From Leucoraja ocellata (taxonomy: Eukaryota), in NCBI GenBank assembly GCA_036785375.1, contig JAWMAR010000077.1, forward strand, positions 1,612,001 to 1,676,000: a stretch of DNA of 64,000 nucleotides, written 5' to 3'. A program made the translations under genes and the position numbers. Below are positions 2,969 through 51,176 of this stretch, piece after piece. Every line of letters begins with the position of its first letter. Within the stretch, counting starts at the first letter, position 1. The notes beneath the pieces are model-generated. The model searched no databases. It was not told where the DNA came from and worked only from the letters and a program-made list of their open reading frames with translations.

Positions 2969-3396
2969 ATGTGGCTGTTTTCCTGTTTTTTCGTGCTAAG
3001 TTTGAGCTGTGCGTGTCAGATGGTTCTTCAGCTATGTATTGTCGGTCTCTCCCGTGGCACAGCCGATTTAATCAAAATCTGTTCTTTTTGCAGGCGGGTG
3101 TTTGGCCCAGACCCTGAACCAGCCCAAAGGATCGCTAACCTCGCCTGCCGGTAAAACAGTGCGAGTCTGGTGTCAAGTGAAAGACGGCCAAATTAGTGAC
3201 ACCAACCCCATTCACTGGTACCAACAGAAAGCCGGGCAGCCGATCGCTCGGATACTCTACTTTGGAAATAGCGTGGTGCGGGATCCGGGATTTGGGACAT
3301 CCTTCAACGGTGGGAAAACCACTGACACCGCATTCTACCTCGCAATTGAATTAACGGCTGACAAATCTGCCACCTATTACTGCGCCTGCTGGGTTA
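2969..3396 (+). CDS. TRGV: TCR gamma variable segment V1 (leader 2969-3008, intron 3009-3093, V exon 3094-3396)
   Basis: Leader MWLFSCFFVLSLS, phase-1 GTGCGT..TTTTTGCAG intron, in-frame V-set domain QTLNQP..WCQV..IHWYQQK..YYCACWV, followed by a 23-RSS. Confidence 0.88.
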
Positions 3397-3435
3397 CACA
3401 GCGTGTAACAGAAACACAATCTCCGCACAAAAAGC
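3397..3435 (+). other. 23-RSS of V1
   Basis: CACAGCG + 23 nt + ACAAAAAGC. Confidence 0.93.
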
Positions 3436-5981
3436 CAGAACACCTGTGTGCACCTGATCCGTAGACTGCAACAACACGCCGCTGCACCCCTCGCCTACTG
3501 CAACAACCCGCCGATGCACCCCTCGCCTACCGCTTCTCCCAGGGACAGGTGCTGGGGTCCGAGCGAGTAGCAGCCGCTAAAACGGCCCGGATCTCCAGTT
3601 ACAAGGAAGCGTTTCCGCTTCAACGATGAGACTGACCCTTGCGTTACCCAATTCCTGGAAGCTGTCCTCCCGCGGAACGGTGGGCGAGGGACTGGCCCGG
3701 CCGGTGTGGTGACAAATGGACTCGCTTTACCTACAGAGTTCCCAATCACCCGACTCTGACGCTGCTCGTCAGAAAACATCATCCCGGTTCCAAGACATTA
3801 CTGCAGGGCTATTTTCTTCCACCCAGAAATCTGCAATAAGCGTGTTCGGTATTCCGACAACGCATGCCCAGGTTATAGGTCACTAGCTATAAAACAGCCT
3901 TGGCAACGGTGATGCTGCATTGTGTGCAGGCGCGTTTCGTCAGTAGTCGGGGTTGGCCCTCCGTCGCTGCGGGTGCTGTTGGGCCGTCCCCTCCCCGGTG
4001 TCCCGTCCCTGCCTGGAGGTGTCCGGGTTGGCCCTGGGCTGGCGAGGCGACCCTGGACTTGCAGCCGCTGGCTCCAGCTCGGCCCTGCCTGTCCCACCGG
4101 GTTAGCCCCAGCAGCCCTCCACCTCCACCTCCTCCCCTCAGTCGGACTCGTACTGTTGCCACGCAACGCCAACTGGAGTACATGCGGTGAACTGCAGGTA
4201 AGCGTGTCTTTGGTAAGCACTTACCCTGGTTTCCAGTGAAGGGGCCCGTCTTCTATCCCAGCTTCCGGACTCCACGCAGACTAGATCCACAATCGTGGAC
4301 CCCGGCCATCTATCCCCCGGCCGCTTACACCTTGGTGTTCGGGTTCAGTGCAAAGATAGTAGGGCATTTGGTTCAGAGCGCTCAGTCACCCTCCACAATT
4401 ATTTACAGCGCAAAAATTGACCATTTCGGCGGTTTTAACAAGTAAGAAAGTACGCGTTTCGTGTGTTAACAGTGTATGCGGGAGGCTGCCATGTCCTCCA
4501 GATGGATTGAGCTGCTCCGTGCGTCACGCCCTTTGACCCGATGACCTTACATGCAGCCCCCTATAGCGCTGAGATCTATTTACTGTTATAGCTTACGGCC
4601 TTTGACAAATCCTATGTTTCCTTGTGTTTTTCGAAATACCGAACTCACTTATCGTTTCATCAATGAACTCCGTCTGTGTAACAAGTGCACCAAGAAGTGA
4701 CAATCTACAGCAAGTGAGTCTAATGAAACATCCTCGCTATTCCATGGCCAGAAAAAGTGAACTGGACCAGCCACTTCACTACTGGGGCAACGCGTACAAG
4801 ACTAGATATCATGGGATGACATTTAAGGATGAGTTTAGCTCCAAACATCTCTCAAAAAGCTCAACACCATCTAGGAAAAGACATTCAAGAGTCTAGAGTT
4901 TAATTGTCATGTGCACAGGGACCAGGCCAACAAAGCTACTGCTTTACAGACATATTAAATGCAACACTACAAACAATTATACTATAAATTCTCAGTTAAA
5001 GCAGCTAGCTAGACCACAATAGTATAAGACAAAGTAAGTAGTGGAACCTTATGGAAAGTTCGTAGTAGTTTGGTGCTGAGGTCAGGTTGTGCAATAAGAC
5101 TCAAAAGCCTGATAAATAATGAAAAATCTTCTTTCCAATGGTAACAGCAAGAGCATGTTTCAGGTGGTGTGGATCTTTAATGATCTACTCCTGTAGATCC
5201 CGTTAGTGGTGGAGAGGTCAATATCTGTAGAGTTGCCAGGCTGTATGCTCTCCACCTATAGTAAATCACAAGAGTATTCAGTACTATGCCAAATCTCCTC
5301 AAAATTCTGAGGCAGTAGAGATGTTGGCGAGTTTTATTTTGTAATTGCATCATTATACTGGGCCCAGGATAGATCATCGGAGATCTGTGCATGAAGGAAC
5401 CTGAAGCTGTTGACTCTCTATACTGCCACCCCACTAATGAAGACAGGTGTAAGGACACCTCAGTTTTCCCTTCCTGATGAAAAATTAGCTCATTGGTCTT
5501 GCTAACATTGAGAGCGAGTTTGTTGTTCTGGTACCACTCAACCAGATTATTATTTTCACTCCTATACTCTGACATCCTTACCATTATTCATCCAACATTG
5601 GTGGTGTCATGTGTGAATTTAAATTTTGTGTTGGAGCTGTGTCTGGCTGCACAGTCACGAGTATAGAAATGGTAGGGGATGACTGAGCATGAGGTCTTCA
5701 TGTGCTTCTCAAGGTCAGTGTGGAGGAGTTGCGTTTGCCAATTCATACCAATTGAATTCTGCCAATGAGGAAGTTAAGGATTTTACTTCGGAGTCACGTG
5801 AGTGACTACGTGAAGAACCCGCCATGGCGCATGCGAGTCATATCGCTACATGCATTGCGAAACGACAGGCGGGGTGGAACGACGTTCCCCCGCAGCGGCA
5901 AGTTTAAAATCCGGGACCGACAGGTAAGTGGTTACTCTGCGGTCTTTATTTTTCCCATACTGTTTCACAGGTGGGAAAACG

Positions 5982-7195
5982 ATGAACAAATCCAAAAAAT
6001 CAACCAGAGCTGCGACAAAGCTGGCGGGGGAGGACCGCGGAGTTGCGGGCAGCCAGCAGCGGCCGGCACAGGAATCACACGTAATGGGATCAGCTGTGCC
6101 CGACTTAACCCCGCACCTGCCAGATCAACACCGCGTCCGGGCGGGAAGGCAAAAAGAAAAACAAACGGAGCCGTTGACTCTGAGGAGTCCGACTTTGAGG
6201 AGCCACGAGCAGCCAGCGACCGTGCGCGCTGGAGCCGGATGGAGCGGCTCATGGAGCAAATGCTCCAACGTGACAGACTCCGGGAGATGGAGTCTAGTCA
6301 CCGTGGGTCATATATAACACCCACAGCAGCACCTTACCTAGGGCTGCACAGTGCATCTCCCTCGTCAGAGGGGTGTACTGGGGGTCAATTCTGGGCTGAC
6401 CCCGAAGAGGGGTTTGCTGAACAAACTACAAGTGTGTAGGGGGTGCAGGAAGGCGAAAATCTACTGGACATGGTGTCCAACTACATACAGCCGGATCAGA
6501 CTGGACGGAACCTAGAACAGAAACTAGCTGCCAGCATTGATGTCCTGTCATTCAAGCAACTACAGGAACAGGCTGTGATGGACACCACTGCCAAATATCT
6601 GGCACCAGGAAATTGCGTATCCCTGAATGTTCCAGTCGTGAATAATTGTATCTGGAAATACGTCGGAGCAGCAGTTAGAAGCATGGATGTCAAGCTCCAG
6701 AGAATACTAAAACTACTAACAGCAGGGATCACAGCATTCGCTCGCACAGTGGATGGGAAGGAAATGTCGCAAGAACAACAGGATGTACTGGCATTATTCT
6801 GCAATACGCAGTATGAAATGTCAGAAAAAGTGCCATCCGACCTGCCTTAAATCCAAAATTTTCAGGCCTGTGCAAACCTGGAGACACAAAGCCACCAATA
6901 TTATTATTTGGTGGAAACCTGTCCAAGCAGGTTAAGGAGCTCGATGAGGCGGCAAAAACCCTGGGGCTCATAAAGGCGACAACAGCAAAGACTTCCCACA
7001 GCCACAAACAGCACTCTTACGCACCCACCAGCAGAACAGGAGAAGCTGGTAAAAGCTCAAAGGCACGGCATACAGGACAGCGGTCTTTTTTAGGCCATGG
7101 CCCAGACCGGCCTTCGTGGAAAATGCGCAAACCCCAAACCCAAACCCAGACACCGGCACCTCAACCTCCTCGAAGACCACACAGGAAGAAGTAAA
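5982..7195 (+). pseudogene. DIRS gag-like ORF1 (frameshifts and stops)
   Basis: Fragments 5765-6439, 6443-6850 (..PGNCVSLNVPVVNNCIW..DVKLQRI..) located upstream of RT. Confidence 0.6.
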
Positions 7196-8690
7196 CCTTC
7201 CACTGGTAACCATGGAGGTAGGTGGGTTTGGTCCCTTACAAATTATAGGAAGTGTGGAAAATACACATATCGGTGGGAGATTACACTTCTTTTGGGAGGC
7301 ATGGAGTGCATTGACAACAGACACTTATATCCTAAACAGTATCCAGGGATATACCATTGAATTTGAGCACAAAAATAGCCCCCCAGTTCAGCATGTACCG
7401 AACCGAATGTTCGTACTTTCATGAAAAGAAAAATTAGAAGCACATGCTGAACTGGTGAGACTTCACGCAAAGGGGGTAATTGAAAAATCCCAACAAATAA
7501 TTCTCTGGAATTTGTGTCTAATATCTTTACCAAAAACAAAAAAGATGGTGCTTGTCGCATTATCATAGATTTGACCAACTTGAATACATATGTGGAATAT
7601 ATTCATTTCAAAATGGAAACCTTAGTTACTGCCAAACAATTGATTTCCAAAGGCTACTTCATGGCTAGCATCGAATTAAAAGATGCTTACTATTCAGTGC
7701 CTATACGGACTGACCACAGACGTTATTTAAAATCCAACTGGATGGGGCAGCGTTGGCAGTATAGAGCTCTACCAAATGGATTAACATCAGCCCCCAGGCT
7801 GTTTACAAAGATTTTGAAACCAGCCCTAGCGTTTCTTCGGAAACAAAAACATATGATCATGGCCTGTCTAAATGACATATTGATTGTGGGCAAAACTTTG
7901 GAACTAGCCAAACTAGCTGTACCAGCCACCAAACAATTGTTTGAGAAACTGGGGTTTATCATCCATCCAGTTAAATCTAAACTAACGCCTTCCACCATAA
8001 TGGATTATTTGGGGGGTCACTATTGACTCAGTTCACATGTCAGTGACTTTACCAAAGGACAAGGCTACAGTCTTAATTGAGGCCTGCAACAACCTCATTG
8101 ACATCAGTGAACCACTATCAGATTGGTAGCAAGGGTGATTGGCAAAATAGTGGCTGCTTTTCCAGCCACACAATTTGGACCTTTGTATTATCAAAATTTA
8201 CAAAGGGCAAAAGTACAAGCATTCAAAATTAATGCTGGTCATTTCGACAGACCAATGAAGCTGCCAATCAAAGCAATTATGGAATTAAAATTGTGGAGGG
8301 ATAACATTTGACATTGTTCCAGCCCTATTATTATCAGCAACCGCTCAGTGGTACTACAAACTGATGCCAGTGCGTTTGGTTGGGGTGCAACCAATTCCAT
8401 CTCCAGTGTGGAGGTAGATGGAATGCACAGGAGGCATCATTACTACAGACACTTGGCATAAACTACCTGGAAATGTTGGATGCGTTCTATGGCCTAAAGT
8501 CATACTATTCTGGAATATATCACCAGCATGTTAGACTACAGATTGACAATACCACCGTGGTGGCATATATTAACCATATGGGTGGAATCAAATCGACATC
8601 ATGTGACAATCTGGATAATACAATTTGGCAATGGTGTATCTAGAGAAATATTTGGATATCAGCTACTTACCTACCAGGTAACCTAAATTC
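7116..8690 (+). pseudogene. DIRS reverse transcriptase / RNase H (disrupted)
   Basis: GGRLHFFWEAW, KKDGACRIIIDL, HFKMET, LKDAYY, LPNGLTSAPRLFTK, degenerate catalytic CLND, TDAS..GWG, INYLEM, DNTTVVAYINHMGG; several stops and frameshifts. Confidence 0.9.
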
Positions 8691-8691
8691 A

Positions 8692-9138
8692 GTGGCAGAC
8701 ACCAGGTCACGCAAATTCAATGAAAACATCGAATGGATGTTGGATATAAAAGTATTTGCTGAAATTGTAGCACGGTATGGAACACCAGATATCGATCTAT
8801 TTGCATCTAGACTCAATCACCAGTTACCAAACTACGTTTCTTGGGAACCAGACCCTGGGGCATCAGCGATAGATGCTTTTTCGCTGCATTGGGGGAAATT
8901 GTTTTTCTATGCATTCCCTCCTTTTGTCTCATCAGTCGGGTATTATGCAAAATACAACAAGTCTGGTATTTTGGTAGTGCCCGGTTGGCCTACTCAACCA
9001 TGGTTCCCTGTGATACTCGACATGGTCTTAGAACCATGTATCACCATCCTGAAACGACCAGATTTGTTGGTTCATCCCGTAACTGGGGATAGCCATCCAT
9101 GTCATAAAACGACAAACATATTAAGTTGTAGAGTCTAA
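8692..9138 (+). pseudogene. DIRS phage-type N6-adenine methyltransferase-like domain
   Basis: IDLFASRLNHQL..DAFSLHW..YAFPPF..WPTQPWFP motifs typical of the DIRS1 MT domain. Confidence 0.85.
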
Positions 9139-9170
9139 AGAGACCTCAACTGGGACTGACGGACCGAACA

Positions 9171-10446
9171 TTGAACATTATCTCAGCGGCTCACAGGCAG
9201 TCCACCAAAAAACAATATATGGTATACATCAGGAAATGGGAGATATATTGCCACAGAAACAACATCACTTACAGCTCGATGAACATAGCTTCTGTTCTGG
9301 AATTCCTGGCAGGCCTCCATTATGATGTGGACAAGCTTTTCCCTTTGAGAATAGGGAAGATTCAAACAAGAGGACATGACTTCAGAATTAAGGGACAGAA
9401 GTTTAGGGGTAATATGAGGGGGAACTTCTTTACTCAGAGAGTGGTAGCGGTGTGGAATGAGCTTCCAGTGGAAGTGGTGGAGGCAGGTTCATTGGTATCA
9501 TTTAAAAATAAATTGGATAGGCATATGGATGAGAAGGGAATGGAGGGTTATGATATGAGTGCAGGCAGGTGGGACTATGGGGAAAAAAAAATTGTTCGGC
9601 ACGGACTTGTAGGGCCGAGATGGCCTGTTTCCGTGCTGTAATTGTTATATGGTTATATGGTTATATGATGAGGGGCCCAGTTAAAGTGCCATTAACTGCG
9701 CCAGAAGTGCCCTTTCAGCATATCTATGGCAAGGATCAGAACGGCATTCTGTTGGGACTCACCCCCTGGTAACCAAACTTATGAGGGGAATTTTTAATAT
9801 CAATCCCCCAAGAACCAGGTACTCTCAAATATGGGATGTGAGTATTGTCCTAACGTTCCTAAGGAACTGGTCTCCAGCAACAGCTCTATCCCTGCAAAAG
9901 CTGACGCATAAAACAGTCATGCTGATGGCTTTGGTCACAGCACAAAGGGTACAGTCTTTACATAAGTTAAGGCTGGACAATACGACTTCTTCAACAAAAA
10001 ATATAACTTTTCATATTCACGAATTAGTCAAACAGAACAGACCGGGATCATCAGGCCTCAAAATAGAATTCGGGGCCTACCCTATAGATGATCGTCTCAG
10101 TATAATAAGACATTTATTGTTATATATGGAGAACACCAAAAACATCAGAGGCAATGAGATGGCATTACTAATCAGCCACAAGCAACCCCACAAAAAAGTG
10201 TTGGTTCAAACTATTTCCAGATGGCTGAAACCGGTTTTAACAACAGCTGGGGTGGATACTAACATATTCAAATCTCATTCCATCAGGGCTGCAGCTACAT
10301 CGGCAGCTATGGAGTTGGACATACCGATGGACCAAATCCTGGAGACAGCAGGATGGTCAAAGGAAAAAACGTTCCAACAATTCTACCATAAACCAGTGGT
10401 TAAACCTGGAACTTTTGCAGAATCAATTTTAAGTTCTGTAATATGA
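9171..10446 (+). pseudogene. DIRS tyrosine recombinase, interrupted by a CR1 tail and a stop codon
   Basis: QRVQSL, ELVKQ, HSIRAAATS, AGW..TFQQFYHK catalytic motifs; removing the 9328-9663 insert gives YDEGPS*SAINCARSALS. Confidence 0.9.
9328..9663 (+). mobile_element. 5'-truncated CR1-type LINE tail inserted in the YR gene
   Basis: DKLFP..TRGH..FFTQRVV remnant, (TTATATGG)n tail, TSD TATGATG at 9321-9327 and 9664-9670. Confidence 0.85.
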
Positions 10447-10615
10447 TTTCACCCCATAAAATAGGGGCTATAATTTGTTGTTAATAAATTTATCATGGAT
10501 TTTCAATATATCAGATTCATGTTTAAACATGTTAACACAATTCCTCCCTTAGTCAATTAAGACAGATGTGATGCATGGACTCGTTTCCACGGCATGAAAT
10601 CACAGAGCTTTGAAA

Positions 10616-10728
10616 TCTTCACGTAGTCACTCACGTGACTCCAAAGTAAAATAGTAAGATTAAACGAGAACTTACCAGTTCGAAGTTTGATCATTATTTT
10701 ATGAGGAGTAACGTTGAGGGATTACGTG
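10616..10728. repeat. DIRS internal complementary region (ICR)
   Basis: 10616-10651 is the reverse complement of the left end (5781-5816); 10652-10728 is the reverse complement of the right end (10867-10943). Confidence 0.93.
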
Positions 10729-11377
10729 CCCTCCGCTCCCACCCTTGATCATAAAGTTCAACTGGTATCCTCTTCTCTAATCTTACTATGTTCAGTCATT
10801 TACTGTTATCTGTGATTTCACACCGCTGCTTTGAAGAATGACACGCTTGCGCTCTGGCGGGTTCTTCACGTAATCCCTCAACGTTACTCCTCATAAAATA
10901 ATGATCAATCTTCGAACTGGTAAGTTCTCGTTTAATCTTACTATTCAATTGTATTGTGCCAAGCAGAGATCAATTTCCCTGCATTTAACAATAGGTTTGG
11001 AAGGGGTGATGGAGGGTATGTATTTGTGTTGTCCAAGTGGTCCAGTGCCGAGTGGAGAGCCAACAATGTCACATCCATTATTGATCTTCTGTGGTGAATT
11101 GAAGTGAATTGAAGTGAGTCCATATCATTACCAAGGCATTAATTGATACTGGTCACAACCAAACCCTCAAAGCACTTCATCACAAGAGACATGCCACTTG
11201 TCGGTAGTCATTGAGGCATATAACTTGCTCTTCTTTGGCATTGGTATTACGGGATCTTGGACAATTGTAATAAGAGGTTGAAAATGTCTGCAAGAGCTCC
11301 AGCCATTTAGTCCGCAGTGACCAGCGACATCATCAGGAGTGGATGCCTGCCGAGGGTTCACCCTCACCACACCACTA

Positions 11378-12078
11378 GGGGCGCTAAACGATTGCCAGCC
11401 CCGCCAACAGTCTATTTGTTTTTCGTCTTTTTAAAATTTTTTAGTGCATTTTATAAGTTTTGTGTAAATGTTCTCTGGTTTGTTTTATGTGGGGGGTGAT
11501 CTTTTTTTCAGTTCCTACCTTGAAAGGAGACACGATGTTTCCAGGTCGCATCTCGGGTCGCTCTGCGGCCTGTCGTCGATGGAGCTGGAGGTCTCTTCGG
11601 ACTGACCTTGGGCCCCATTCCAGGGCGTGGACTTAATATTGGAGCTGCTCCCTTGCCAGGGATCGCTCCAACAGTGGCCTGCAGATTTACCATCAAGAGC
11701 TTGCAATCTCGGGAGAGGCTAATCGAGAGCTCCGATGTACGCAGTGGCTCGACCAGCCCCGACGCGGGGTTCGATCGGCCAGCGCGGGGGGGGGAGCTGA
11801 CATCCCCCTGATGCAGGAGCTGGATCGCCCTGACGTGGAGATCATCCCGTGAATGGAGGGCTCGAGGCCCCCGACCGAGAGCTAAGGGAAGAGATTGAAC
11901 TTTGTTTTGCCTTCCATCACAGTGAGGAATGTGGGGTCTCTGTGGTGGACGTTTATGTTAAAATGTGTTTTGTGTGTTCTGTTGCTTTTTATTTGTATGA
12001 CTGACTTGGCAAATGAAATTCCTCGTATGTTGCAAAACATACTTGGCTAATAAAGTATTATTGTGATTGTGATTGTGA
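11378..12078 (+). mobile_element. Non-autonomous retroposon with (TTGTGA)n tail
   Basis: GC-rich body, AATAAA, then TTGTGA repeats at ~12060-12078. Confidence 0.45.
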
Positions 12079-12629
12079 AGGGTCTTCAGATCCTTCTGAA
12101 GATCCTCCTGTACCTATATCTTCCCCCCTTACATCCATCCAGGGATTCTAGTGGTCCTTCGGTGTGGAAGATTTCAACCTTCACGTGGTCCGCCCTGTTT
12201 TGATTAATGCAATCAACTCGACGTGCACAAACAGAAGATCAAATAGAACAAGTTGTCCTACAATTTTAGGTTGTGCACGCCACACGAAAGAAGAAGCAGA
12301 AGCAGTCCTTCCAGGTGAGACAAATGCACCTCCTCTAACCATTAACTCCCCTTCCCATTCATATACTGGCCTTGTTGACCTGGGCCACCACCATGCCAGA
12401 GTAAGACCACATGCAAACTGGAAGAGCAGTACCTCTCTTTCCAATTGGATATCTTGCAGCTTAATGTTTACTTTAGTTTATTATTGCAAGTGTACAGAAG
12501 TGCAGTGAAAAGCTTTTTGTTGTGGGCTTTCCAGTAAAAAAAAACTCTATACATGATTACAAGCAAGCTGTCCACAGTGTAAAGGTAAAGCTTGAAGGGT
12601 ACAACATTTTGTGCACGACAAAGTCTGAT

Positions 12630-13032
12630 AGAAGATTGAGGGGGGATCTTATAGAAACTTACAAAATTCTTAAGGGGTTGGACACGCTAGATGCAGGAAG
12701 ATTATTCCCGATGTTGGGGAAGTCCAGAACAAGGGGTCACAGTTTAAGGATAAGGGGGAAATCTTTTAGGACCGAGATGAGGAAAACATTTTTCACACAG
12801 AGAGTGGTGAATCTCTGGAATTCTCTGCCACAGAAGGTAGTTGAGGCCAGTTCATTGGTTATATTTAAGAGGGAGTTAGATGTGGCCCATGTGTCTATAG
12901 AGATCAGGGGGTATGGAGAGAAGGCAGGTACAGGATACTGAGTTGGATGATCAGCCATGATCATATTGAATGGCGGTGCAGGCTCGAAGGGCCGAATGGC
13001 CTACTCCTACACCTATTTTCTATGTTTCTATG
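12630..13032 (+). mobile_element. CR1 LINE 3' fragment
   Basis: RRLRGDLIETYK..GTGY*, same 3' UTR and TTCTATG tail as 232-1674. Confidence 0.9.
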
Positions 13033-13479
13033 ATAAAATATAGTTCAAAGGTCTCCAATGAGGTAGATGGGAGGTCAGGATGGCACTTTAGTTGGCGAGA
13101 AGACGATTCAGTTGCTTGATAGCAGCTGGGAAGAAACGATCCCTGAATCTGGAGTAAAGTGTTTTCAAACTTCTGTGCCTCTTGCCTGATGGGAAAGGGG
13201 GTAGTGACCAGGCGAGACCAGTTTTTGATTGTGCTGGTGGCCTTGTCAAGACAATGTGAAGTGTAGATGGAGTCAATGTTGGTTTGCGTGATGATCTAGG
13301 CTATGTCCACAACTCTCTGAATTTTCTTGTGGTCAAGAATGGTGCTGTTCCCAAACTAGGCTATGATGCATCCCAATAAAATGGTTTCTATGGGGCATCT
13401 GTAGAAGCTGGTAAGTGATGTTGGGACATGCTGAACTTCCTCAGCCTTCTAAGGAAGTAGACAAAATGTGTAATAAAGA

Positions 13480-13640
13480 AGTACAGATGCTAGTTTACAT
13501 CGAAGATAGGCTCAAAATGATGGAGTAACTCAGTAGGTCAGGCAGTCTGAAGAATGGTCTTGACCCGAAACGTCATCTATTCCTTTTCTCCGGAGATGCT
13601 GCCTGATCCATTGAGTTACACCAGCATGTTGAGTCTATCG
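13480..13640. mobile_element. Palindromic Penelope-derived repeat with central hammerhead-like core
   Basis: Inverted arms (~13505-13545 vs ~13599-13640) enclosing CTGAAGA-stem-GAAACGTC at 13547-13574. Confidence 0.6.
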
Positions 13641-13934
13641 CAGTAAGCAGATATGCTGGTATGCTTTCCCTGCCCGAGCTTCGATGTGGTTGGTTAAGGA
13701 AGGATTTATAGTGATCTTTATTCCTTGGAACTTTAAACTTTTGATGATCTCTACTTCGGTGCCTTTAATGTATACTGGTGTGTGTGTGTACCTCATTGCT
13801 TTCTGAAGTAAAACATAATCTTGCTGACATTGAAGGAAGGTTTTTTGTTATTGCACCAGGTTGCAAGGTTCTCATTCTCCTTCTTGAACTGGGGTGGGGG
13901 GTTGTGCTGAGAATACATCATCTCAGACATGAGT

Positions 13935-13962
13935 CTGAAGAAGGGTCTCGACCCGAAACATC
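13935..13962 (+). ncRNA. Minimal hammerhead ribozyme motif (Penelope-type)
   Basis: CTGAAGA-A-GGGT(CTCG)ACCC-GAAAC; activity untested. Confidence 0.55.
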
Positions 13963-14399
13963 ACCATTCCTCCTCTCCAGAGAAGCGGCCTGTCCCGTTG
14001 AGTTATTCCAGCATTTTGTGTCTATCTTCAAAAGGTCAAATATCCACGTCCTCCGGAGATGCTGCCAGACCCGCTGGGTTACTCCAGTACTCAGTCACTT
14101 TTTTTTGTACACCAGCACCTGCAGTTCCTTGAGTCTCGAAGGATCTTCAGATGCTGGTCTCGGACACTGAGATCACAGTGTCATGGGGGATGTGGAGAAT
14201 CGTGAAGGCCCTTTGTTCTTCCCTTTGATGCAAACATAGAAGACATTGAGCTCATCCAGAAGTGATCTTTCTATGTCACCCGACCTACTTACTGTCACCT
14301 TGTAGGACGTGATGATGTCCAAGTCCTGCCAGACCTGTTGAGCATCCACCTCATCAACCGCCCTGAACATTTATGCTCACCACCAACTGCGCTTAATAA

Positions 14400-21397: not shown

Positions 21398-21428
<31 letters not shown>

Positions 21429-22720: not shown

Positions 22721-22724
22721 AAAT

Positions 22725-38691: not shown

Positions 38692-39196
38692 TGTCACCTC
38701 CTTTGAACCCCCAGCATGCAGTCTGCTTGTTCCTCATTAATTATCTGCTTTTAGCCCGTCATTCCCTCCAATACTTTATCACTTGCGATTGGTATTTTGT
38801 ATATACTACAGTGTATACTGTATAGGACATGGATGATGCTTATTTCTCGTTGAATCGGAAGTCTTTGGAGGTCTCCTGCACAAAGGGCGGTGGTAAACCT
38901 GCAGCAGCTGGTTTAGGTTCCGTGGGCCATGTGGTGGGGAGGGGGAGTGGAGATCCGGAGTGGCATTTAATGATGCGCCAGAATAGTAATGAGAGGCTAC
39001 ACATCATCGCACCAAATGGAACCGGTAGCTTGTGTGAACTATGAACTTATGACTCTCTCCAACATGCTCCGTGCTTATTTCACATTTTAATCACCTGCGT
39101 TTTTCGCGTCAGTACTCGACTGGAGCGGCGGCGGCTGTGAGATCAAACGCCAGCATCTTAGTCGCCCGGCTGAACGTAACCCTCCAACTCCTCAAC

Positions 39197-39664: not shown

Positions 39665-39703
39665 CACAGTGGCCGACAGCGACGGGGAACCAGTACATAA
39701 ACT
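39665..39703 (+). other. 23-RSS of V5
   Basis: CACAGTG + 23 nt + ACATAAACT. Confidence 0.92.
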
Positions 39704-40477
39704 CAACATACCAATGTTATCCATTGTGCTCGTTTAACTTGTTCAAAAACAATTAACAGGTGTGGTGCATGCATATCTCCGTCTAAGGTGAACGCAGATG
39801 TTCAAAATGTGAAACAAGCACGGAAAATGATTCAATCATGGCGGATGTATCTATCTTTCTCAAAACCATTCTCCTGCCTTCTCCCGCATAACCTTTGACA
39901 CCCTTACTAATCAAGAATATGTCAAGCTCTGCTTTAAAAATACCCAATGACGGCTTCCGCAGCCGTCTGTGGCAATGAATTCCGCAGATTCACCACTGCA
40001 GTACCCGGAAAAACATATGTGGCCACTAAAGAATTTCCTCCTCATCTCCCTTCTAAAGGTACGCCATTTTATTCTGAGGTTGTACCCTCTGGTCCGAGAT
40101 TCACCCACGAGTGGAAACATCCTCTCCACATCATTTTCCCATGGCTATCATATAAACCCACTGACTCCCATGGCTATCTGGACTACACTTCTTCCCACCC
40201 TGCTTCCTATAAGGACTCCATCCCCCACTCCCAATTCCTCCGTCTACGCCGCATCTGCTCCCAGGATGAGGCGTTCCACACCAGGGCATCTGAAATGTCC
40301 TTATTCTTCAGGGAACGGGGGTTCCCCTCCTCCACCATAGATGAGGCTTGCACCAGGGTCTCTTCCATACCCCACAACACTGCTCTCTCTCCCCATCCCC
40401 ACACTCGCAACAAGGGCAGAGCCCCCTAGTCCTCACCATTCACCCCACCAGCCGTCACATACAACAAATAATCCTCC

Positions 40478-43400
40478 GTTTAATCAAGGCAGGGGACGAT
40501 ATGGACAAATTATTTCCTTTTATTACTTCACAGAGAACACCCGAAGATAAGGGAAGAAACACCATTCTCTAAAAGTTTAAAATGGAAGAGCATTTCCATG
40601 TGCGCTGGTCTAGACACCTTATCTCCTTTGGACGCTTTGGAATTCAACTCAAGGACATTCTTTGTTCAAAATGAAGGAAAGACTGATCAGCAATGCAGAG
40701 ACGAACAGCAGAGCCGAATGTGGAATATATCACAAGGACAAATGGCGGTTTAAGATCTTAAAATAGCTTTACAAAATATAGAGAATTAACAATAATTATC
40801 AATACTAATATAGAAATATAAATGGAAACTAACCTGAACTATATAATGGGCAAAATGTAATAATGTGCTAAAAAGACTGACTAGCTCGTATATAGAGATA
40901 ACAAATTTTAGAATTAAAGTAGATAATACTGAAAGTTTAAGTGCTATGTAGTTTGTGTGGGGAAGGGAGGAGACTCAGGCACCTGGCATAATTCCAGGAG
41001 CCTGTTTCTGGTTAACCCTTACAGCTAACAGCTTACTATTATCAAAGGTATAACTAATTATAAATAATTAGTAAATTAAAGTGTTAGATAAATAAATTTC
41101 ACAGTAGCTGAACACAGATTTGATAAGTCTAAAATGAAATATTAATGGGTGTAATTGGGTGAAATATAATTGATTTTGAAATGGTACCGCCCTCCTAGGT
41201 TTAGAGTAATAAAGGGTGCAGAGCTAATTGTACAACATCAACTTCGGAAGTCAAATAGATGTCGAATCCCACAGATGCGTGGGACACGCACTACAGTGTC
41301 GAATACTCCAGACACTGTAATTTTACTTGTTCAATTTAAAAAAAAATCACAATATGTCACTACTATGTGTTTTTTTTTCAAGGACAATCGCAAAAGGGAT
41401 CTACTAAGGAAGTTAGTAATATAAACGCCCCCCAAATATCCAGAATCCTGAGGTATGGATGCACCGTAATAAATAAGGATATTAAAATCAGAGAAAATGC
41501 AAGATGATAAACAAAAGAAAATGGGAGGAATCACACGGTGTAGCTGGAATATAAGGGGTATTAATGAACCAATTAAAAGGGGCAAAATACTAGCTCAGTT
41601 GAAATCATATAACACGGACATTACTTTTCCACAAGAAACGCATCTTAAACATCAAGATCAGATGAGATTGAGGGCGAATTGGATAGGCCAAACATTTCAC
41701 TCCTCATATACTTTGAAATCCAGAGGCACCGCAATTATTATTCGCAAAGGAATACCATTCAAATCAAAGAACACTGTATCAGATAAGGAAGGGAGATATC
41801 TTATAGTTACAGGAGAGATCCATGCTACGCCAATCACTTTGGTAAACATATATGCGCCCAATTTTGATAATCTTCAATTTTTTAATAAAATCCTGAATAT
41901 AATCGCAGAATTTAACTACAAAAATGTTATAATTGGAGGAGACCTACTGTGTTTTAGATCCGTATTTAGATAAATCGATGCAAAAACAAAGAGGTAATAT
42001 GAAATCTAAAACTAGTGAACTGTTAAATACATATATAAAAAATACAAATATAGCAGACTTTGGAGGATCGCGAATTCGACTGGCAGGGAATACTCATTTT
42101 ATTCAATGGTAAACAAAACATACTCACTTCCTAGTGGATACAAAACTAATCCCTTATACTATGAACCCTAAATATCACACCAATACGATTTCAGATCACT
42201 CCCCGCTAACTTTTGTTTTAAAATTAGAAGGAATGTCTACGAACAAATCGTTCTGGAGGTTTAACTCGCAAATTCTGAAAGACCCACAAGGGAATATATA
42301 TCTAAAAAAACAGATGGACCTATTTTTTTAGACAAACGATACACCAGATATATCAAAGGTATAACTAATTATAAATAATTAGTAAATGGAAGTGTTAGAT
42401 AAGTAAATTTCACAGTAGCTGAACACAGATCTGATAAGTCTAAATGAAATATATATATATATATATATAGTGTAATTGGGTGAAATATAATTGATTTTGA
42501 AATGGTACCGCCCTCCTAGGTTTAGAGTAATAAAGGGAGCAAAGCTAATTGTACAACATCAACTTCGGAAGTCGAATAGATGTCAAATCCCACAGATGCA
42601 TGGGACATGCACTACAGTGTCGAATACTCCAGACACTGTAATTTTACTTGTTCAATTTTTTTTTAAATCACAATATGTCACTACTATGTGTTTTTTTTCA
42701 AGGACAATCGCAAAAGGAATCTACCAAGGAAGTTAGAAATATAAACGCCCCCCAAATATCCAGCGTCCTGAGGTATGGATGCACCGTAAATCTGTCTGAA
42801 GAAGGGTTTCGGCCTGAAACGTCGCCTATTTCCTTCGCTCCATAGATGCTGCTGCACCCGCTGAGTTTCTCCAGCAATTTTGTGTACCACCAGATATATC
42901 GCCCACTTTACTATGGGAATCCTTCAAAGCATTTATTAGAGGAGTCATTATCTCATATCAAGCTTTTCAAAACAAAAAGAATAAGAATGAACAAAGACAA
43001 TTAGAAGAACAAATCAGACAACTAGATATAGATAATGCTAAAGATCCAACTATGGATAAACATAATAAAATTTGAATACTGAAATTTAAGCGAAATAAAT
43101 TATTGTCAGAGAATGTTATAAGATTATTCCAAATTACAAAACAAGAACATTTCGAATTTGGGGATAAACCCCATAAACTTTTAGCACGCCAACTGAAAAA
43201 CGGGAAAAAGATCATGCAATTTTAAAGATTAAATCAGATAGAAGGGAATTAACACTACCTAATGATATCAATAAAAGATTTGCTCAATTTTACAAGAATT
43301 TATACACATCGAAAACGCTAATAGACAATAATAAAGTTTCAGACTTTTTGGACAATTGTAACCTTCCAAAACTAGAACTGAAGGAACAAGAGGAACTGGG

Positions 43401-46220
43401 AGCACAAATTACATCTAAGGAAATAGAAGACACAATAAACACACTTAAGAATGGAAAAACACCAGGACCAGACGGATTCAGTAATGAATTTTATAAATGT
43501 TTTTACGACATAGTTACACCACGTCTACAGAAAATGTATACATACGCTTTTAAAGAACAAATCTTACCTGAAATACTAGCAGAATCAACGATCACATTAA
43601 TACTTAAAAAAGATAAAGATATAGAAGAACCAGGCTCATATAGAGCTATTGCTTTGTTAAATACGGATCAAAAAATATTAGCGAAAACACTAGCTAGAAG
43701 ACTAAGTCAATATGTTAGTAAATTAATAAATGAGGATCAAACGGGATTTATACCTAAAAGACATTCATTTAATAACCTGAGACGTCTGCTTAACATAATG
43801 CACTCTCACAAACCTCAAGAACAAGAGTTATCTATCATTTCATAGGACGCAGAAAAAGCGTTTGATCAAGTAGAATGGGATTATATGATTAAAGTATTGC
43901 AAAAATTTCAAATGGGAGAGAACTTCATCGCATGGATAAAATTATTATATAACAAACCCACGGCTAGAATATTAACTAATAATATACTATCTATGAAATT
44001 CCAATTATCAAGGGACAATAGACAAGGATGTTCATTATCACCGCTGTTATTTGCTCTGGTAATTGAACCTTTAGCTGAAAAAGTCAGAACACACTCGGAT
44101 ATTTACGGTTATAATACAAAATACTCAAATAACAAAATATCCTTATACACAGACGATGTACTACTGTATATCACAAAACCCCAAATCAGTATACCAAACA
44201 TGTTAAATCTAATTGAGGACTTTGGATCTTTCTCAGGATACAGAATAAACTGGAACAAAAGTGAAATTATTTCAATAAAACCGAAAGACTCAACACATCT
44301 CTTTAAATTCCCCTTTAAAATAGCCACAGAAAAATTTAAATATTTAGGAATTGAAATCACTAGAAACTATCACGCTATGTTTAATGCCAATTATAGCCCC
44401 TTACTTAAGAAACTAAATAATCTAATCAAATTCTGGAAAACGCTCCCAATGTCTTTAATAGGTCGAATAAATGCTATAAAAATGATATTTTTTTACCACA
44501 AATCCTATATTTATTTCAATTGTTACCTATATATCTTCCAAAAAAGTTTTTCAAAAAGTAGACTCAGACATTACAAATTTTATATGGGATTATAAATCCT
44601 ACAGAATACAAAGAGCACACCTTAGTAAACCAAAAGAGATGGGTGGTCTAGCGCTCCCTAACTTTATGTACTATAATTGGGCAGTAAATATTAAAAATAT
44701 TATTCACCTGCTGGACAATTCTGCCCAGCAGGTGGACTGGATTGTAATGGAGAGAGAGGACTGCTCTCCATGTAATACAGGAGCGACTCGCCTCTCACCA
44801 TTGAATCTGAATAACAAAAATTATAATAAAAATCCAATGATACATGGGACAATTAGAACTTGGAAACAAATAAAACAGAATCTAAAATTAAGAAATCTAT
44901 CTCTGCTAATGCCAATAGTCAATAACCCGTTGTTTAAACCTTCAATTATAGATAAATCATTTACACAATGGGAAAGAATGGGAATCAAAACGCTCAGAGA
45001 CTTGTATGAATTAGGAAAATTATTATCATTTCAACAATTACAACTGAAATATAATTTGAAAAATAATCAATATTTTAAATATCTTCAAATCCGTGACTAT
45101 CTGAAAAAATACACAAAAGACTATCATAACATGCCCCCAGACTTATTGGATGAAGCCATGAAGACAAAGGCTGAAGCAGCAAATCTAATATCATACTTAT
45201 ACAATATTATTTTAAATATAGAAATACCTACAACTGATGGTGTTAGAAGAGACTGGGAACAAGAACTAGCTATAAAATTTTCAAAAGAGAGCTGGGATAA
45301 ACACTATATGTGCATAAATGCTCGATCAATGTATGACATACTCTAATTCAATTTAAAACATTACATAGATTATATTATTCAGAAACTAAAATAAATAAAT
45401 TTTTCCCCAATGTCTCACCCATTTGTGATAAATGTCAGTCACAAGAAGCTACCATAGTGCACTCTTTTGGTTTTTGTATAATAATCCAAAAATTCTGGAA
45501 CGAAATATTTGAAATCTTCACAAAATTAATTAAAATAAAACTTGTACCAAAAGCAGAATGGATCATTTTTGGAATATCGGAAGGTAACCCCGAATTAAAC
45601 GTGTTTCAAAAGAACTTACTTAATTACAGGCTAATAATGGGAAAAAAGCTTATACTCAAATTTTGGAAAAATGCTCCAATACCAACAATAAAAATGTGGA
45701 TTTCAAACATGTTCGAAACACTACACCTGGAAGAGATGAGACTCCTCCTAGCAGACAAAGCAGACCACTTCCAAAATACGTGGTCTGCATTTATGGAACT
45801 ATTACAAGCATAAGGTGCAATAGTAATTTAAAATATAAATGGTACCAGGATCTGGTAACGGGGGGTATAAAATAAAAAAAATAAAAAAACACGGTTGGTA
45901 TATTCTTTTTTGCGGAGTTTTGTGTTATAATAGAGCGATTGTTTTTCCTTTTTTTCTTTTCTTTCTAGGGGCTATTTTCTTTCTTTACTTCCTTCTCTAA
46001 CTTCCTCCCTAAGGGGCTTTCTTCTCTCAACACTTTCCCGCACCTTCACGATTCTTGCTCACTTTCCTTACTTCTTTTATTTCTACCTTTTTTTAAAGCT
46101 CGAAAAATGAAGTGGTACAACAAATGTAATCAGATATATGTGATGCGTATTACTGTAATTTACTGTACTTATAATTAAAACAATAAAAATAAAATATAAA
46201 TAAATAAATAAATAAATAAC
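40478..46220 (+). mobile_element. L1/Tx1-clade LINE (inter-ORF region, disrupted ORF2 with APE endonuclease, RT and C-terminal domain)
   Basis: SWNIRG..QETH..NIYAPN..SDHSP; GKTPGPDG..DQTGF..AEKAFD..RQGCSLSPLLF..YTDD; (AAAT)n tail; TSD AATAATCCTCC at 40467-40477 and 46221-46231. Confidence 0.93.
42355..42887 (+). mobile_element. Chimeric insertion: copy of L1 segment ~41045-41470 joined to a Penelope hammerhead tail
   Basis: 13-bp TSD CACCAGATATATC at 42342-42354 and 42888-42900. Confidence 0.85.
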
Positions 46221-46868
46221 AATAATCCTCCACCATTTCCGCCACCTCCAACATGACCCCAACCACTCGCCACATCTTCCCATCACCCCCAATGTCTGCG
46301 CTCCGCAAAGACCACTCCCTCCTCAGCTCCCTTGTCAATTCTTCCCTTCCCTCCCATACCACCCCCTACCCGGGCACTTTCCGTTGCAACCGCAAGAAAT
46401 GCAACATCTGTCCCATTACCTCGCCTCTCAACTCCATTCAAGGACCCAAGCAGTCATTCCAGGTGCGACAGAGGTTCACCTGTATCTCCTCCAACCTGAT
46501 CTACTGCATCCGCTGCTCTAGATGTCAGCTGATCTACATCAGTGAGACCAAGCGGAGGTTGGGCGATCGTTTCGCCAAACACCTCTGCTCGGTCCACAAG
46601 AACCTAACTGACCTCCCGGTGGCTCAGCACTTCAACTCCCCCTCCCACTCCGAATCCGACCTCTCTGTCCTGGGTCTCCTCCATGGCCAGAGCGAGCAAC
46701 ACCGGAAATTGGAGGAACAGCACCTTATATTCCGTTTGGGGAGTCTGCATCCGGGGACATGAACATTGAATTCTCCCAATTTTGCTAGCCCTTGCTGTCT
46801 CCTCCCATCCCCCAGCCCTCGGGCACCTCCTCCTTTTTCCTTCCTTCTCCCCGCCACTCCCTATCAGT

Positions 46869-46896
46869 CTGAAGAAGGGTTTCGGCCCGAAACGTT
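46869..46896 (+). ncRNA. Minimal hammerhead ribozyme motif at the Penelope 3' end
   Basis: CTGAAGA-A-GGGT(TTCG)GCCC-GAAACGTT about 105 bp downstream of the GIY-YIG ORF. Confidence 0.65.
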
Positions 46897-47974
46897 GCCT
46901 ATTTCCTTCGCTCCACAGATGCTGCTGCACCCGCTGAGTTTCTCCAGCCTTTTTGTGTACCTCCTCACCACATCCACTCTATCCAGGCCTTTTGTTTATT
47001 CGGCGTTTCAATGAAGTACACCCTCATTCTCCAAGAAGTGGGATGAAATGTACCCCACTTGCCTGGATGAGTGCAGATCCAACAACACTGGATTCTTGGC
47101 AGCTAAGTGTTTGAAACCCACCGATATCTTCACTCCCACGGTGACCTCTGCATTATGGCCGCAGTGTTTGTGATACACACAGATTTGAGTCAAAACCAAG
47201 GGAGTGCCATAGGAGCACCTTCACCATGCCGACTCTAAAGATTCAAGATGTGGATCAGCTCAATAAAAAAACATGCATGGCATAAATTAATGCAAATACG
47301 AATTGTATTTGACGTGCGACTGCATTTAATTGACCCCTTCTCATCCTTTATTAAACAGTCACAAGTTACAACTTTCAAGCGTGCCCTTTCCACCCAAGAA
47401 TGTGCTCTAAGATAGCCGTCCGCCGGATTTACAAATCAATCACTCCTGCCCTATTCTGGTCACCCTTCCTAAAGCAGGTCCTGTTTTCACCCCGCAGCTT
47501 CCTGTCTGAGCGATGTTGCACCAACGGGGAATCTGTGATCCCAGACAGATATTATTTTCACTTCACTTCTTACATTTAGAGTTTCAGGGGAACGGGGCAG
47601 GCGGAGTGCGCATTAGGGAAGAGTGTTAATCGATGAACATTACCGGACAAAAGTGCTTGCTGAACTAAAGGGATTGTTGGGAGTGAGGACATTTTGACCA
47701 GTGAGCAGTTTGTAAGGAGACGCTTTCTGGAAGGTTGTAGAAGTTGTTTCTTGGATGTTTATGGAAGAGTCCCGAGTGCAGAGCTCATGCACCACGTGAT
47801 TAGAAATCGTTCTTTCAAATTCTAGCGGAAGACAATGTGAGTTATTTTTTAACCGAGTCTCTTTACAATTAAGAGAGTCCTTAATAATGCGCTTTGTCAT
47901 AGCTGATAGGGACAAATTAACATTCGGGATGGCCTCCTGCTCAACGACATCTCATCCAACGGATTAGCTCAGAT

Positions 47975-48705
47975 AGATAGACACAAAATGCTGGAGTCAC
48001 TCAGTGGGACAGGCAGCATTTGTGTATAGAAGGAATGGGTGAGGTTTTGGGTCGAGACCCTACTTCAGACTGAGAGTCAGGTTAGAGGGACACGGAGATA
48101 AGGAAGTGTAGGGTGTGAAAACGAGACATCAAAGGGGATGTAGATCAAGGCAAATGTATACATTTGATCCAATGTCAGATCCTCGCCTGGATCCAAAAGT
48201 AATAAATACACTTCAAGGACACTGAACATATACACTTTCGTTTACTCGTCCGGCATTCCTTTACATCCCGCCAACATGTGTATACATTGTTAGCTAGGAG
48301 AAGCTGACAACGAAGAGATACAATTTAATCAGGGGAGCAATCAGGCTCGTCAGGGGGAGGGATGGAGAGAGAAGGAAAGCACGCGTTACTTGAAGTTAGA
48401 GAAGTCAATATCCATACCGCTGGGGTGTAAGCTGCCCAAGCGAAATACGAGGAGCTGCTCCTCCAATTTGTACTGCCACCACTCTGAGGAGGCCCAGGAC
48501 AGAAGGGTGAGTGTTGGAACGGGAAGGGGAGTTAAAGTGTTTAGTAACCAGGAGATCAGGTAGGTTCAGGCGGACTGAGCGGAGGTGTTCAGCAAAACGA
48601 TCGCCGAGCCTGCGCTTGGTCTTGCGGATATAAAGGAGTCTACAACTGGAACAGTGGACACAGTAGATGAGGTTGGAGAAGATGCACGTGAACCTCTGCC
48701 TCACC
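47975..48705 (-). mobile_element. Penelope-like element 3' fragment (GIY-YIG plus tail)
   Basis: ORF 48405-48704 CIFSNLIYCVHCSSC..YIRKTKRRLGDRFAEH; degenerate hammerhead at ~48043-48070. Confidence 0.8.
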
Positions 48706-49546
48706 AGAAAAGACTAGCGGGTTTGTGAACCTCTGTCTCACGTGAAAAGACTGGTGGTTTGGGGCTGAATCGGGAATCTTGTTGGCGGCGAGGCAGTTCC
48801 AGGTTCAGTGCAGTAAACGCTCCGACAGTCAATATGGGGAGAGTCTTTCTGTGTTTGCGGAGTAGCTCCTGGCTCGCATTATTCTGATTATCACATCATT
48901 CACGTCAAAAGATTGGAATAAAGTGGCCAGGAAAATTATGTTGGGATGTCGGGATCCGGAGCAGCATCTCTTTGCTGAAGTTACTTACACCAACCATGTT
49001 GCAAGGGTTTGGGGAATTTAACATAGCAGCGATAAAGGAAGGAGATAACTGGTTAAATGTGGGTGGTTTGTGACTGGTCAGGCAGAGGGAGGGGGTTATA
49101 CAAGCAGGAAAGATCGAACCAGCTTTTGGCGCAGAAAAAAATCCTCTTATTGACTGGGTGGATTTCTTTTAAAATATAATTTTCCGCACAATAACAACAT
49201 TTTGGAAGAACTCGGCGGGTCAAGCATCATCTGAAATGGCGAATGAACATAGAACGTTTCTACATGCTTCATAGATGCTGCCACACCATCTGAGTTACGC
49301 TAGCACTTGGTATCCTTGTATGTAAACCAGCTTCTGCAGTTCTTCATTTCTGCAGATGTTTCAGGTTGAGACACATCTTTAGATGGAGTCAGAAGAAGTG
49401 GCCCGGTCGAAATATCGTCTGTCCATCCCCTCCTCACATGCGGGCAGACCAGCTAGGTTCATCCAGCGCCCCGATTTTAGCTCTAGATTCCAGCATCTGC
49501 GGTTCTTTTTTAATGTCTGCAAGTAACAAAATATGTCGGGTACAGA

Positions 49547-50540
49547 GGGCGGCACCGTGGCGCAGCGGTAGAGTTTACAACGTCAGAGACTACAGCACCT
49601 GATAGACCAGCCATGGTTGAATGGCGGAGTAGATTTGATGTGCCAAATGGTCTAATTCTGCTCCCATAACTTACGAACCTATGAACTGACTACAGGAGCC
49701 GCCTGCCCGTGACCACGTGGGGGGTCGATTGCGACAAGGGCGACAAGTTTATTTCGAGAAGACTGGAATATAAAAACAGGGATGTAACGCTGAGGCTTTA
49801 TAAGGCACCGGTCAGACGGCATTTGGGATATTGTAAGCAATTTTGGGCCCCTTGTCTGAGGAAGGACTGCGGGCTTTGTAGAGGATCCAGAGTAGGTTAA
49901 TGAGAATGATCCCAGGAATAATTGGGTTAATGTATAACGAGCGGTTGACGCCAATGGGCCCATACTCGATGCGGTTTAGAAGGGTGAGTCTGTACAGATT
50001 GGATGCGCAGAGGGTGTTTCCATTGGAGAGTTTGGGGCCAAAGGGCATTGGCTCGGAATCAAAAGACGTGTCTATAGAAAGAGGATGAGGATTAATCTCT
50101 TTAGTCAGAGAGTGATAAATCTGTGGAATTATTTGCCACAAAATGCTGTGGAGGCCAAGTCAATGGATATTTTTTGTCGGGGATTGATATATTCTTGATT
50201 AGTACCGGTGTTGGGGGTTATGGGGAGAATGCATGTGAATGGGGTTGAGAGGGAAGGATAGATCAGCCATGGTTGAATGGCGGAGTACATTTGATGTGCC
50301 ATATGGTCTAATTCTGCTCCCATAACTTACGAACCTATGAACTGACTACAGGTGCTGTCTGCCCGTGACCACGTGGGTGTTTTTGCTGGGTCCTCCGGTT
50401 TCCTCCCACACTCCAAAGATGTACAGGTTTATAGGTTAATTGGCTCCGGGAGGCGAGTGGGATAGTGTTAGTGTACAGGGTGATCGCTGGTCGGTGCGAT
50501 TCGGTGGGTCGAGGGGCCCGTTTCCGTGCTGTGTCTCGAA
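49547..50540 (+). mobile_element. HE1-like SINE interrupted by an old CR1 fragment, with a ~120-bp direct duplication
   Basis: SINE head GGGCGGCACCGTGGCGCAGCGGTAGAG; ~49600-49722 is repeated at ~50258-50377. Confidence 0.65.
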
Positions 50541-50700
50541 AATCTAAAGACGAATCTCGAAAGGTTAGAAACGAGGTTAGAAGGCGTGGTTTGTGACATA
50601 AGCGACTGTCTGATCGAGGGAAAGTAGGACTTGAGGATTGACGGTATTTATATGCAGCCAGACCAAGTCGAGACAGAGGTGTCACAACCCGACAACCAGG

Positions 50701-51137
50701 ATGCGGCCGTGCTCTGTCGGTTTCGTGATGTTTTTTCTCCGTATGTCAATTCATTTTCCATCTTCCGTCTGGAAAACAAAGTTATGGGTTTTGTTCTTTG
50801 TTTCTACATTCTAAAGTACAACTTGTGAATTTTCTCTTCGCAGGCAGATGTCTTGTTGACGGTATAACACAGCAACAGATGTCCCTCGTCTCAATGGCAA
50901 GTAAAAGTGTCACAATCGCATGCGGCATGAACGAAGCGACCGTCATCCACTGGTATCGGCAGCCAACGGGCCAGGCGCCAGTCAGGATCCTGTATTATGA
51001 ATCTGGGGTCAACAATCGGGATGATGGATTTGGGGACAGATTTACAGCGCGACTTGTTGTGACTGGACAGTATTCTCTAACGGTGGACGCTCTCAAGAGA
51101 GATGACTCCGCCACCTATTTCTGCGCATATTGGGATA
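50701..51137 (+). CDS. TRGV: TCR gamma variable segment V6 (leader 50701-50740, intron 50741-50843, V exon 50844-51137)
   Basis: Leader MRPCSVGFVMFFL, GTATGT..TCGCAG intron, ITQQQMS..IACGMNEATVIHWYRQ..RFTA..DSATYFCAYWD; TATA-like TATTTATA at 50645. Confidence 0.88.
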
Positions 51138-51176
51138 CACAGAGTTAAACAGCAACCGACGTCGCTTACAAAAACC
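51138..51176 (+). other. 23-RSS of V6
   Basis: CACAGAG + 23 nt + ACAAAAACC. Confidence 0.93.

Follow-up and report, generated by a model that had tools for sequence, protein, structure and literature searches.

A germline T-cell receptor gamma translocon in the cartilaginous fish Leucoraja ocellata

We analyzed a 64,000-nucleotide stretch of the 3.44-Gb genome assembly of Leucoraja ocellata (GCA_036785375.1, contig JAWMAR010000077.1, hereafter C77; G000:C77:1612001-1676000, hereafter the window), to which 600 kb of neighbouring DNA was added, making 664 kb analyzed. The window contains six variable (V) genes, which are very probably the germline V segments of a T-cell receptor gamma (TCR-gamma, TRG) locus. 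A six-frame scan of the window found six V-set exons on the plus strand and zero on the minus strand, and the Pfam V-set model matched all six of them. In each gene a GT-AG phase-1 intron (74-117 nt) separates the leader exon (40-43 nt) from a V exon whose frame stays open up to the heptamer of a recombination signal sequence (RSS), giving spliced frames of 111-117 codons in 6/6 cases. The spacer of every RSS is exactly 23 nt, with 0-2 mismatches to the consensus. There are six V-associated 23-bp RSS on the plus strand and none on the minus strand, compared to a mean of 0.03 and a maximum of 1 in 100 Markov simulations. A preliminary description, made from the letters of this stretch, had reported six leader-plus-V two-exon genes, all on the plus strand, all in frame and with exact 23-nt spacers, and this is confirmed.

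The six segments, in window coordinates and all on the plus strand, are as follows, each leader starting at its ATG. V1 (2969..3435) has its leader at 2969-3008, its V exon at 3094-3396 and the RSS CACAGCG-23-ACAAAAAGC at 3397-3435. V2 (19268..19714) has the leader at 19268-19310, the V exon at 19385-19675 and a perfect RSS, CACAGTG-23-ACAAAAACC, at 19676-19714; it is closely followed by V3 (20042..20524; leader 20042-20084, V exon 20178-20485, RSS CACAGTG-23-ACATAAACC at 20486-20524). V4 (25209..25681; leader 25209-25248, V exon 25336-25642) carries CACAGCG-23-ACAAAAAGC at 25643-25681, and V5 (39197..39703; leader 39197-39239, V exon 39357-39664, alternative splice acceptor possible at 39354) carries CACAGTG-23-ACATAAACT at 39665-39703. 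The last segment, V6 (50701..51176), is closest to the joining (J) segments and has the leader at 50701-50740, the V exon at 50844-51137 and the RSS CACAGAG-23-ACAAAAACC at 51138-51176. A weak 12-bp nonamer within the 23-bp spacers of V1 and V4 was considered a chance occurrence.

The motif IHWY is present in all six window segments and YYCAxW in five of the six, V6 having YFCAYW. These two motifs and the 23-RSS had been put forward as markers of TRGV; on their own they would not exclude an immunoglobulin (Ig) lambda light chain or a TCR-alpha (TRA) locus. At the nucleotide level V1 and V4 are 73% identical (61% in amino acids), V3 and V5 are 76% identical (66% in amino acids), and the remaining pairs among the six fall at 43-53%. 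The six window segments form four clans: V1/V4, V3/V5, V2 and V6. The IMGT rule for subgroups uses a 75% nucleotide cut-off, under which V1 and V4 would fall into separate subgroups. The four subfamilies of the preliminary description stand as four clans.

Neither J segments nor a constant (C) gene were found inside the 64-kb window, as had been stated before, and both lie 4-12 kb downstream of it. Three J segments follow on the plus strand, with heptamers at C77:1680222, 1681318 and 1681530. J2 and J3 each have a 12-RSS, the FGxG motif and a GT donor. J1 (L001:4190-4271) deviates from this, with FGFG, a donor that is weak and a likewise weak 12-RSS that can be read in two ways; it may be little used or non-functional. 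The C gene, also on the plus strand, has three exons (C77:1684420-1684737, 1686564-1686641 and 1688172-1688305) with compatible splice phases. The first is of the C1-set type (Pfam E 1e-18), the second is a connecting exon that bears Cys, and the third is a transmembrane (TM) exon with a single Lys. One TM Lys is a criterion for a TCR-gamma C region. The expectation of 12-RSS J segments with FGxG and of a C gene with a TM exon downstream was therefore borne out, J1 being atypical. The polarity of the signals, with 23-RSS at V and 12-RSS at J, permits direct V-to-J joining, and no paired signals of the diversity (D) type appeared in the RSS scans of the window and the downstream DNA, in which no D-specific or relaxed scan was included. 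The array is larger than the six genes described at first, all of which are real: a seventh intact segment, V0, lies ~6.5 kb upstream of the window (C77:1605190-1605672), with three mismatches in its nonamer. Relaxed V searches across the 664 kb revealed no additional V or V remnants. From the start of V0 to the stop of C the locus measures 83,116 bp, and its V7-J3-C1 organization is that of a conventional TCR-gamma translocon.

The identity of the V domains was examined in a maximum-likelihood tree of 36 rows, in which 7/7 V fell inside a 22-row clade with named TRGV sequences (support 95/93). None of the 14 V of different type that entered the tree from this genome falls within the clade; these were labelled as Ig light chain (IgL)-like, Ig heavy chain (IgH)-like, TCR-alpha/delta (TRA/D)-like or non-rearranging VJ by inspection, and were what remained of 20 stretches taken, after 6 that did not match the extraction pattern had been left out. 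The TRG identity proposed in the preliminary description is thus upheld by grouping with TRGV and not with the genome's own Ig-like or TRA/D-like V. The homologue searches yielded proteins of turtles, birds and bowfin, several of which bear the name TRGV, together with two V of catshark and close relatives that are unnamed. Four of the unnamed proteins (P0018, P0022, P0023 and P0035) have a V in the joined state, with a J that is almost the same as J3. P0022 is 82% identical to V3, P0023 is 81% identical to V4, P0035 is 71% identical to V6, and the V end of P0018 is 79% identical to V6 over 47 aa. The C part of P0018 is 73-75% identical to C exon 1, and its TM exon is 93% identical. P0024 is 84% identical to V0; for V2 no close relative was found among 60 database matches, the best being at 43%.

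The seven segments might instead belong to another locus in which V carries the 23-RSS and J the 12-RSS, i.e., an Ig lambda-type light chain or TCR-alpha. The RSS polarity is, as established, the same in these loci, and when two V and the C were searched against PDB sequences, most of the matches were antibody chains; as a test of TRG versus IgL these searches were set aside, since they are swamped by antibodies and cannot discriminate. This alternative is opposed by the connecting exon and the single-Lys TM exon of the C gene, which are absent from IgL, by the presence of only three J, by STARD3NL adjoining the locus on its 3' side, and by the position of the genome's own IgL-like and TRA/D-like V outside the clade. 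A lambda-type IgL locus has a TM-less single-exon C in V-J-C clusters; the C gene here has three exons including TM, and seven V share one J-C block. We regard the assignment to IgL or TRA as already largely refuted and its residual probability as close to nil.

Several observations bear on the use of the segments. Because P0018, P0022, P0023 and P0035 represent V joined to a J3-like J, the V3, V4 and V6 lineages rearrange in a relative, judging from these database proteins. In X6, a sequencing run of unrecorded type, the V exon bins are covered and the unique spacer bins are not. One X6 contig fits from exactly the V3 splice acceptor at 20178, with 22 letters ahead of it, and another ends 3 nt before the V4 RSS. 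This suggests that the X6 contigs are spliced transcripts and that the run is RNA in nature; the splice joint itself is not among the X6 rows listed.

The whole locus is represented twice in the assembly. The stretch C77:1348713-1588635 repeats as 1588836-1823623 (235-240 kb), and V, J, C, STARD3NL, EPDR1 and SFRP4 all occur in both copies. The repeat junction coincides exactly with a 200-N gap, the repeat end being the last base before it and the repeat start the first base after it; a gap between duplicates has been described as a mark of false duplication (10.1101/2021.04.09.438957). Over the whole block, 4978 mismatches among 236,935 aligned bases give a divergence of ~2.1% between the copies; this is an upper value, as some repeat matches are counted in it. 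The divergence is 0.9% in the J-C region and 2.0% around V2-V3. Contigs of three of the four public runs (X1, X2 and X4) cross the repeat end unbroken, and X3 has no piece there among those listed. An X2 contig carries all four upstream-copy differences in its span and then continues 127 bases into the unique flank, and no joint or loose end at the repeat end is among the entries listed for the four runs. Contig depth is alike inside and outside the block (X2, 19-26 versus 27-41; X4, 22-28 versus 21-28), a weak measure, as contigs merge alternative paths and depth does not equal copy number. Because contigs of 3/4 runs cross the repeat end unbroken, the second 240-kb copy is likely to be the unmerged other haplotype.

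Within the V2-V3 region, X1 matches the window copy with 0 differences, X2 has many upstream-copy letters, and a second species yielded one contig with 27 differences. V4 falls in an N gap of the upstream copy, and in X2 the V4 region is present in a second version; a loss of V4 in the upstream copy was rejected, the gap being the likely cause. The upstream copy also has 1-bp indels in V3. The deletion at 20338 is absent from contigs of 4/4 runs, including an X6 contig that bears the neighbouring letters of that copy; it is therefore likely to be an assembly error, and pseudogenization of V3 was rejected. A genome search with C-gamma gave only two copies among 40 matches, both on C77. Among 148 SH3 matches, ~43 same-score pairs were counted by eye, and this suggests an assembly that is widely doubled, with widespread unpurged haplotypes. 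Many family matches genome-wide form same-score pairs, either on two scaffolds or twice on one.

A real tandem duplication would mean two V-J-C cassettes in a 240-kb segmental duplication that includes STARD3NL, EPDR1 and SFRP4, the TRG identity being kept. Both copies are in the assembly, they differ by ~2% overall and at 8 residues of C-gamma exon 1, and duplication of TRG cassettes is common in mammals and catfish (PMC7349638, PMC8656973). Against this, the repeat ends meet exactly at the N200 gap, the X1, X2 and X4 contigs pass the repeat end, the depths are alike, weak as that measure is, and the same-score pairs hint at general doubling. Contigs and the N-gap junction do not show a multi-cassette TRG of the ruminant or catfish type, and we consider a real duplication improbable, at less than one chance in ten. 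Anyone who took the assembly at face value would be led to report a TRG duplication falsely.

On the 3' side of C lies STARD3NL in inverted orientation, with MENTAL-family exons on the minus strand at C77:1713097-1727683. Beyond it are EPDR1-like and SFRP4-like exons, the latter with a Pfam Fz match; both names are assigned from motifs. The same 3' order (STARD3NL, EPDR1, SFRP4) is given for Xenopus and human TRG (PMC12529555). Within each STARD3NL copy two MENTAL-family matches (C77:1719315 and 1727579) lie 8 kb from each other and align to identical N-terminal positions of the model; they may represent a duplicated exon or a second gene.

The 5' side is different. A Link-domain gene on the minus strand (Xlink exon at C77:1344789, long TM-bearing last exon), which we presume to be SUSD5-like, has its Xlink exon 22 kb from V0 of the upstream copy, without an N gap in between. 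A CRTAP-like gene on the plus strand has a leprecan-family exon at ~C77:1310k, and the CRTAP-like/SUSD5-like pair spans C77:1310247-1344965. AMPH is absent from the 155 kb upstream that were examined. An exon-based genome search located amphiphysin-family exons on C164, C62 and C152 and none on C77; the C62 exon (C62:4335464) is presumably the most AMPH-like. Genome searches with Pfam BAR and SH3_9 gave no C77 match, although they are weak for short AMPH exons, and motif scans of the analyzed region gave nothing convincing for GLB1, TMPPE, FBXL2 or NME8. AMPH is the 5' border of TRG in teleosts, amphibians and amniotes (PMC8656973, PMC12698447, PMC7349638). It does not border the locus described here, and AMPH is a conserved bony-vertebrate neighbour and not a defining part of the receptor locus. 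Of the AMPH/STARD3NL synteny that the preliminary description proposed as a check, the inverted 3' STARD3NL is found and the 5' AMPH is not. Among the papers listed by a literature search, none mentions SUSD5 or CRTAP beside TRG, which is no proof that the arrangement is unreported.

Taking these data together, we hold with high confidence that the six genes of the window are germline V of a cartilaginous-fish TCR-gamma translocon (7 V, 3 J, 1 C, 83 kb), likely present once per chromosome set, in which RAG would join V to J by the 12/23 rule in developing T cells. The anatomy of the locus, the polarity of its RSS, its J and C genes, the 3' synteny and the tree placement were observed directly, and the steps of joining, splicing and pairing are deduced from established V(D)J biology. 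RAG would cut at a V 23-RSS and a J 12-RSS, and joining would be deletional, as all segments are on one strand; the leader-VJ transcript would be spliced to the three C exons, the TM lysine would dock CD3, and the chain would pair with TCR-delta. To judge from RSS quality and the rearranged database orthologues, the segments are probably RAG-competent in this animal, as stated earlier.

Some points weigh against this interpretation. No V-J junction from this species was seen. The support of the TRGV clade is barely at the cut-off and its interior is unresolved; the named TRGV references owe their labels to automatic annotation of bird, turtle and bowfin sequences, and LV321 is the label of one clade member. 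To these are added the predominance of antibody chains in the PDB matches, the RSS of V0 and J1, which are weaker than the others, the lack of AMPH on the 5' side, and the copies, 1-2% apart with many insertion differences, which is high for alleles; the contig-based haplotype test falls short of raw-read proof. One might also suppose that the array is dead or an orphan copy, with V no longer rearranging, given the heavy retroelement debris, the 1-bp indels of V3 in the upstream copy and the missing junction. Yet the frames, leaders, splice sites and RSS of seven V are intact in the window's copy, J and C are intact and linked, and the upstream-copy V3 deletion, absent from 4/4 runs, is likely an assembly error. 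We judge a dead array to be very improbable.

The two copies provide a further observation. In the assembly C-gamma exon 1 occurs in two versions with 11 base differences, all in replacement codons, affecting 8 residues. Ten of the 11 fall within 27 bp (L001:8555-8581), where 0.24 would be expected, and this cluster causes 7 residue changes in a 10-residue stretch after a conserved Trp, with no silent change in the exon. Between the copies, the adjoining 2.8 kb of intron has 4 substitutions, the connecting exon shows no difference, the TM exon differs by a single silent change, and the six V alleles compared have 0-3 residue differences each. Across the clustered stretch P0018 has residues in common with both versions, a sharing that, as far as sequence comparison goes, argues against random error. 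A title in the references of PMC5931798 indicates that allelic polymorphism in the constant domains of fish TCR has already been published. We suggest, tentatively and with more doubt than conviction, that TRG here departs from the bony-vertebrate pattern both in a SUSD5/CRTAP border in place of AMPH and in two strongly diverged C-gamma alleles kept by balancing selection or patch conversion. If true, this would be a polymorphic constant-domain surface that a partner or pathogen may read.

The DNA between and beyond the V segments (3436..64000) is a retroelement-rich spacer. About half of the window recurs elsewhere in the analyzed 664 kb (V paralogues are included in this figure), and 10/14 of the long window open reading frames (ORFs) scanned have Pfam matches to reverse transcriptase (RT), RNase H or integrase, in agreement with the earlier view that the genes are spread apart by insertions and transposon debris. 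The retroelement fragments of the spacer include RT at 7484-8023, 32745-33545, 43177-44592 and 58321-60108, a tyrosine recombinase on the plus strand at 9685-10443, and RT-RNaseH/integrase matches at 36813-38193 and 60959-61567. The insertions would merely widen V spacing. Between V1 and V2, an RT ORF followed by the tyrosine-recombinase ORF (5756-10443, plus strand) resembles a DIRS-type retrotransposon, and a tandem array at 31227-32009 is built from 37- and 51-bp units, which recur with a higher-order period of 88/139 bp.

Other V-type genes were encountered in the genome. Germline-joined IgL-like VJ exons are present on C384, C531, C4271 and C94 (L066, L069, L070, L076 and L080), in keeping with a cartilaginous-fish genome; on C384, C531 and C4271 numerous C exons are close to them. 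C471 (L071-L075) has many 23-RSS V in both orientations that are TRA/D-like, and one IgH-like V (L072). At L065 (C5:876628) and C76:8544206 a non-rearranging VJ-type domain is part of an open frame of 1988 codons, and a cluster of single VJ exons resembling it (L063, L064) is nearby; the frame may be an intronless gene with several domains or a fusion with a retroelement.

The TRG of the sandbar shark (Carcharhinus plumbeus), reportedly described by Chen et al. 2009, forms a single translocon, made up of five V, three J and one C (PMC7349638, PMC5931798). It extends over ~32 kb, and somatic hypermutation has been demonstrated in this shark. The present locus is likewise a single translocon with few divergent V, three J and one C; unlike that of the shark, it has seven V, including the V1/V4 and V3/V5 pairs at 73-76% nucleotide identity, extends over 83 kb with retroelement-rich spacers, and has an atypical J1. 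For the nurse shark, 69 TCR-gamma sequences were assigned to 9 V genes (PMC5931798), a similarly small repertoire of few families, known there from cloned sequences and here from a germline map with flanks. The V-J-C order, the three C exons and the inverted 3' STARD3NL followed by EPDR1- and SFRP4-like genes are shared with bony-vertebrate TRG (zebrafish V7-J7-C, Pleurodeles V4-J2-C, alligator, opossum, human), which lies between AMPH and STARD3NL; here SUSD5-like and CRTAP-like genes are on the 5' side and the AMPH-like exon is on C62. Cartilaginous-fish Ig clusters are V-(D)-J-C repeats, some of them germline-joined, a state described as unique to cartilaginous fish, and their TCR loci are translocons (PMC6795676). 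The present locus shares V-set exons, split leaders and RSS with the Ig clusters and differs from them in having many V per single J-C block and a C gene with a TCR-type TM exon.

The locus is expected biology, of the same kind as sandbar shark TRG, which it exceeds in size and in its number of V (seven). The literature searches listed no publication dedicated to a germline TRG map of a skate or ray; supplements of shark or ray genome papers may already hold such maps. The result is a full germline TRG map for a cartilaginous fish, with 7 V, 3 J, 1 C and two likely haplotypes. A germline reference is a prerequisite for testing somatic hypermutation of TCR-gamma, and in the sources cited here a whole-locus map is mentioned only for the sandbar shark. 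The lack of AMPH at the border and the clustering of differences in C-gamma offer small, testable leads on the evolution of TRG.

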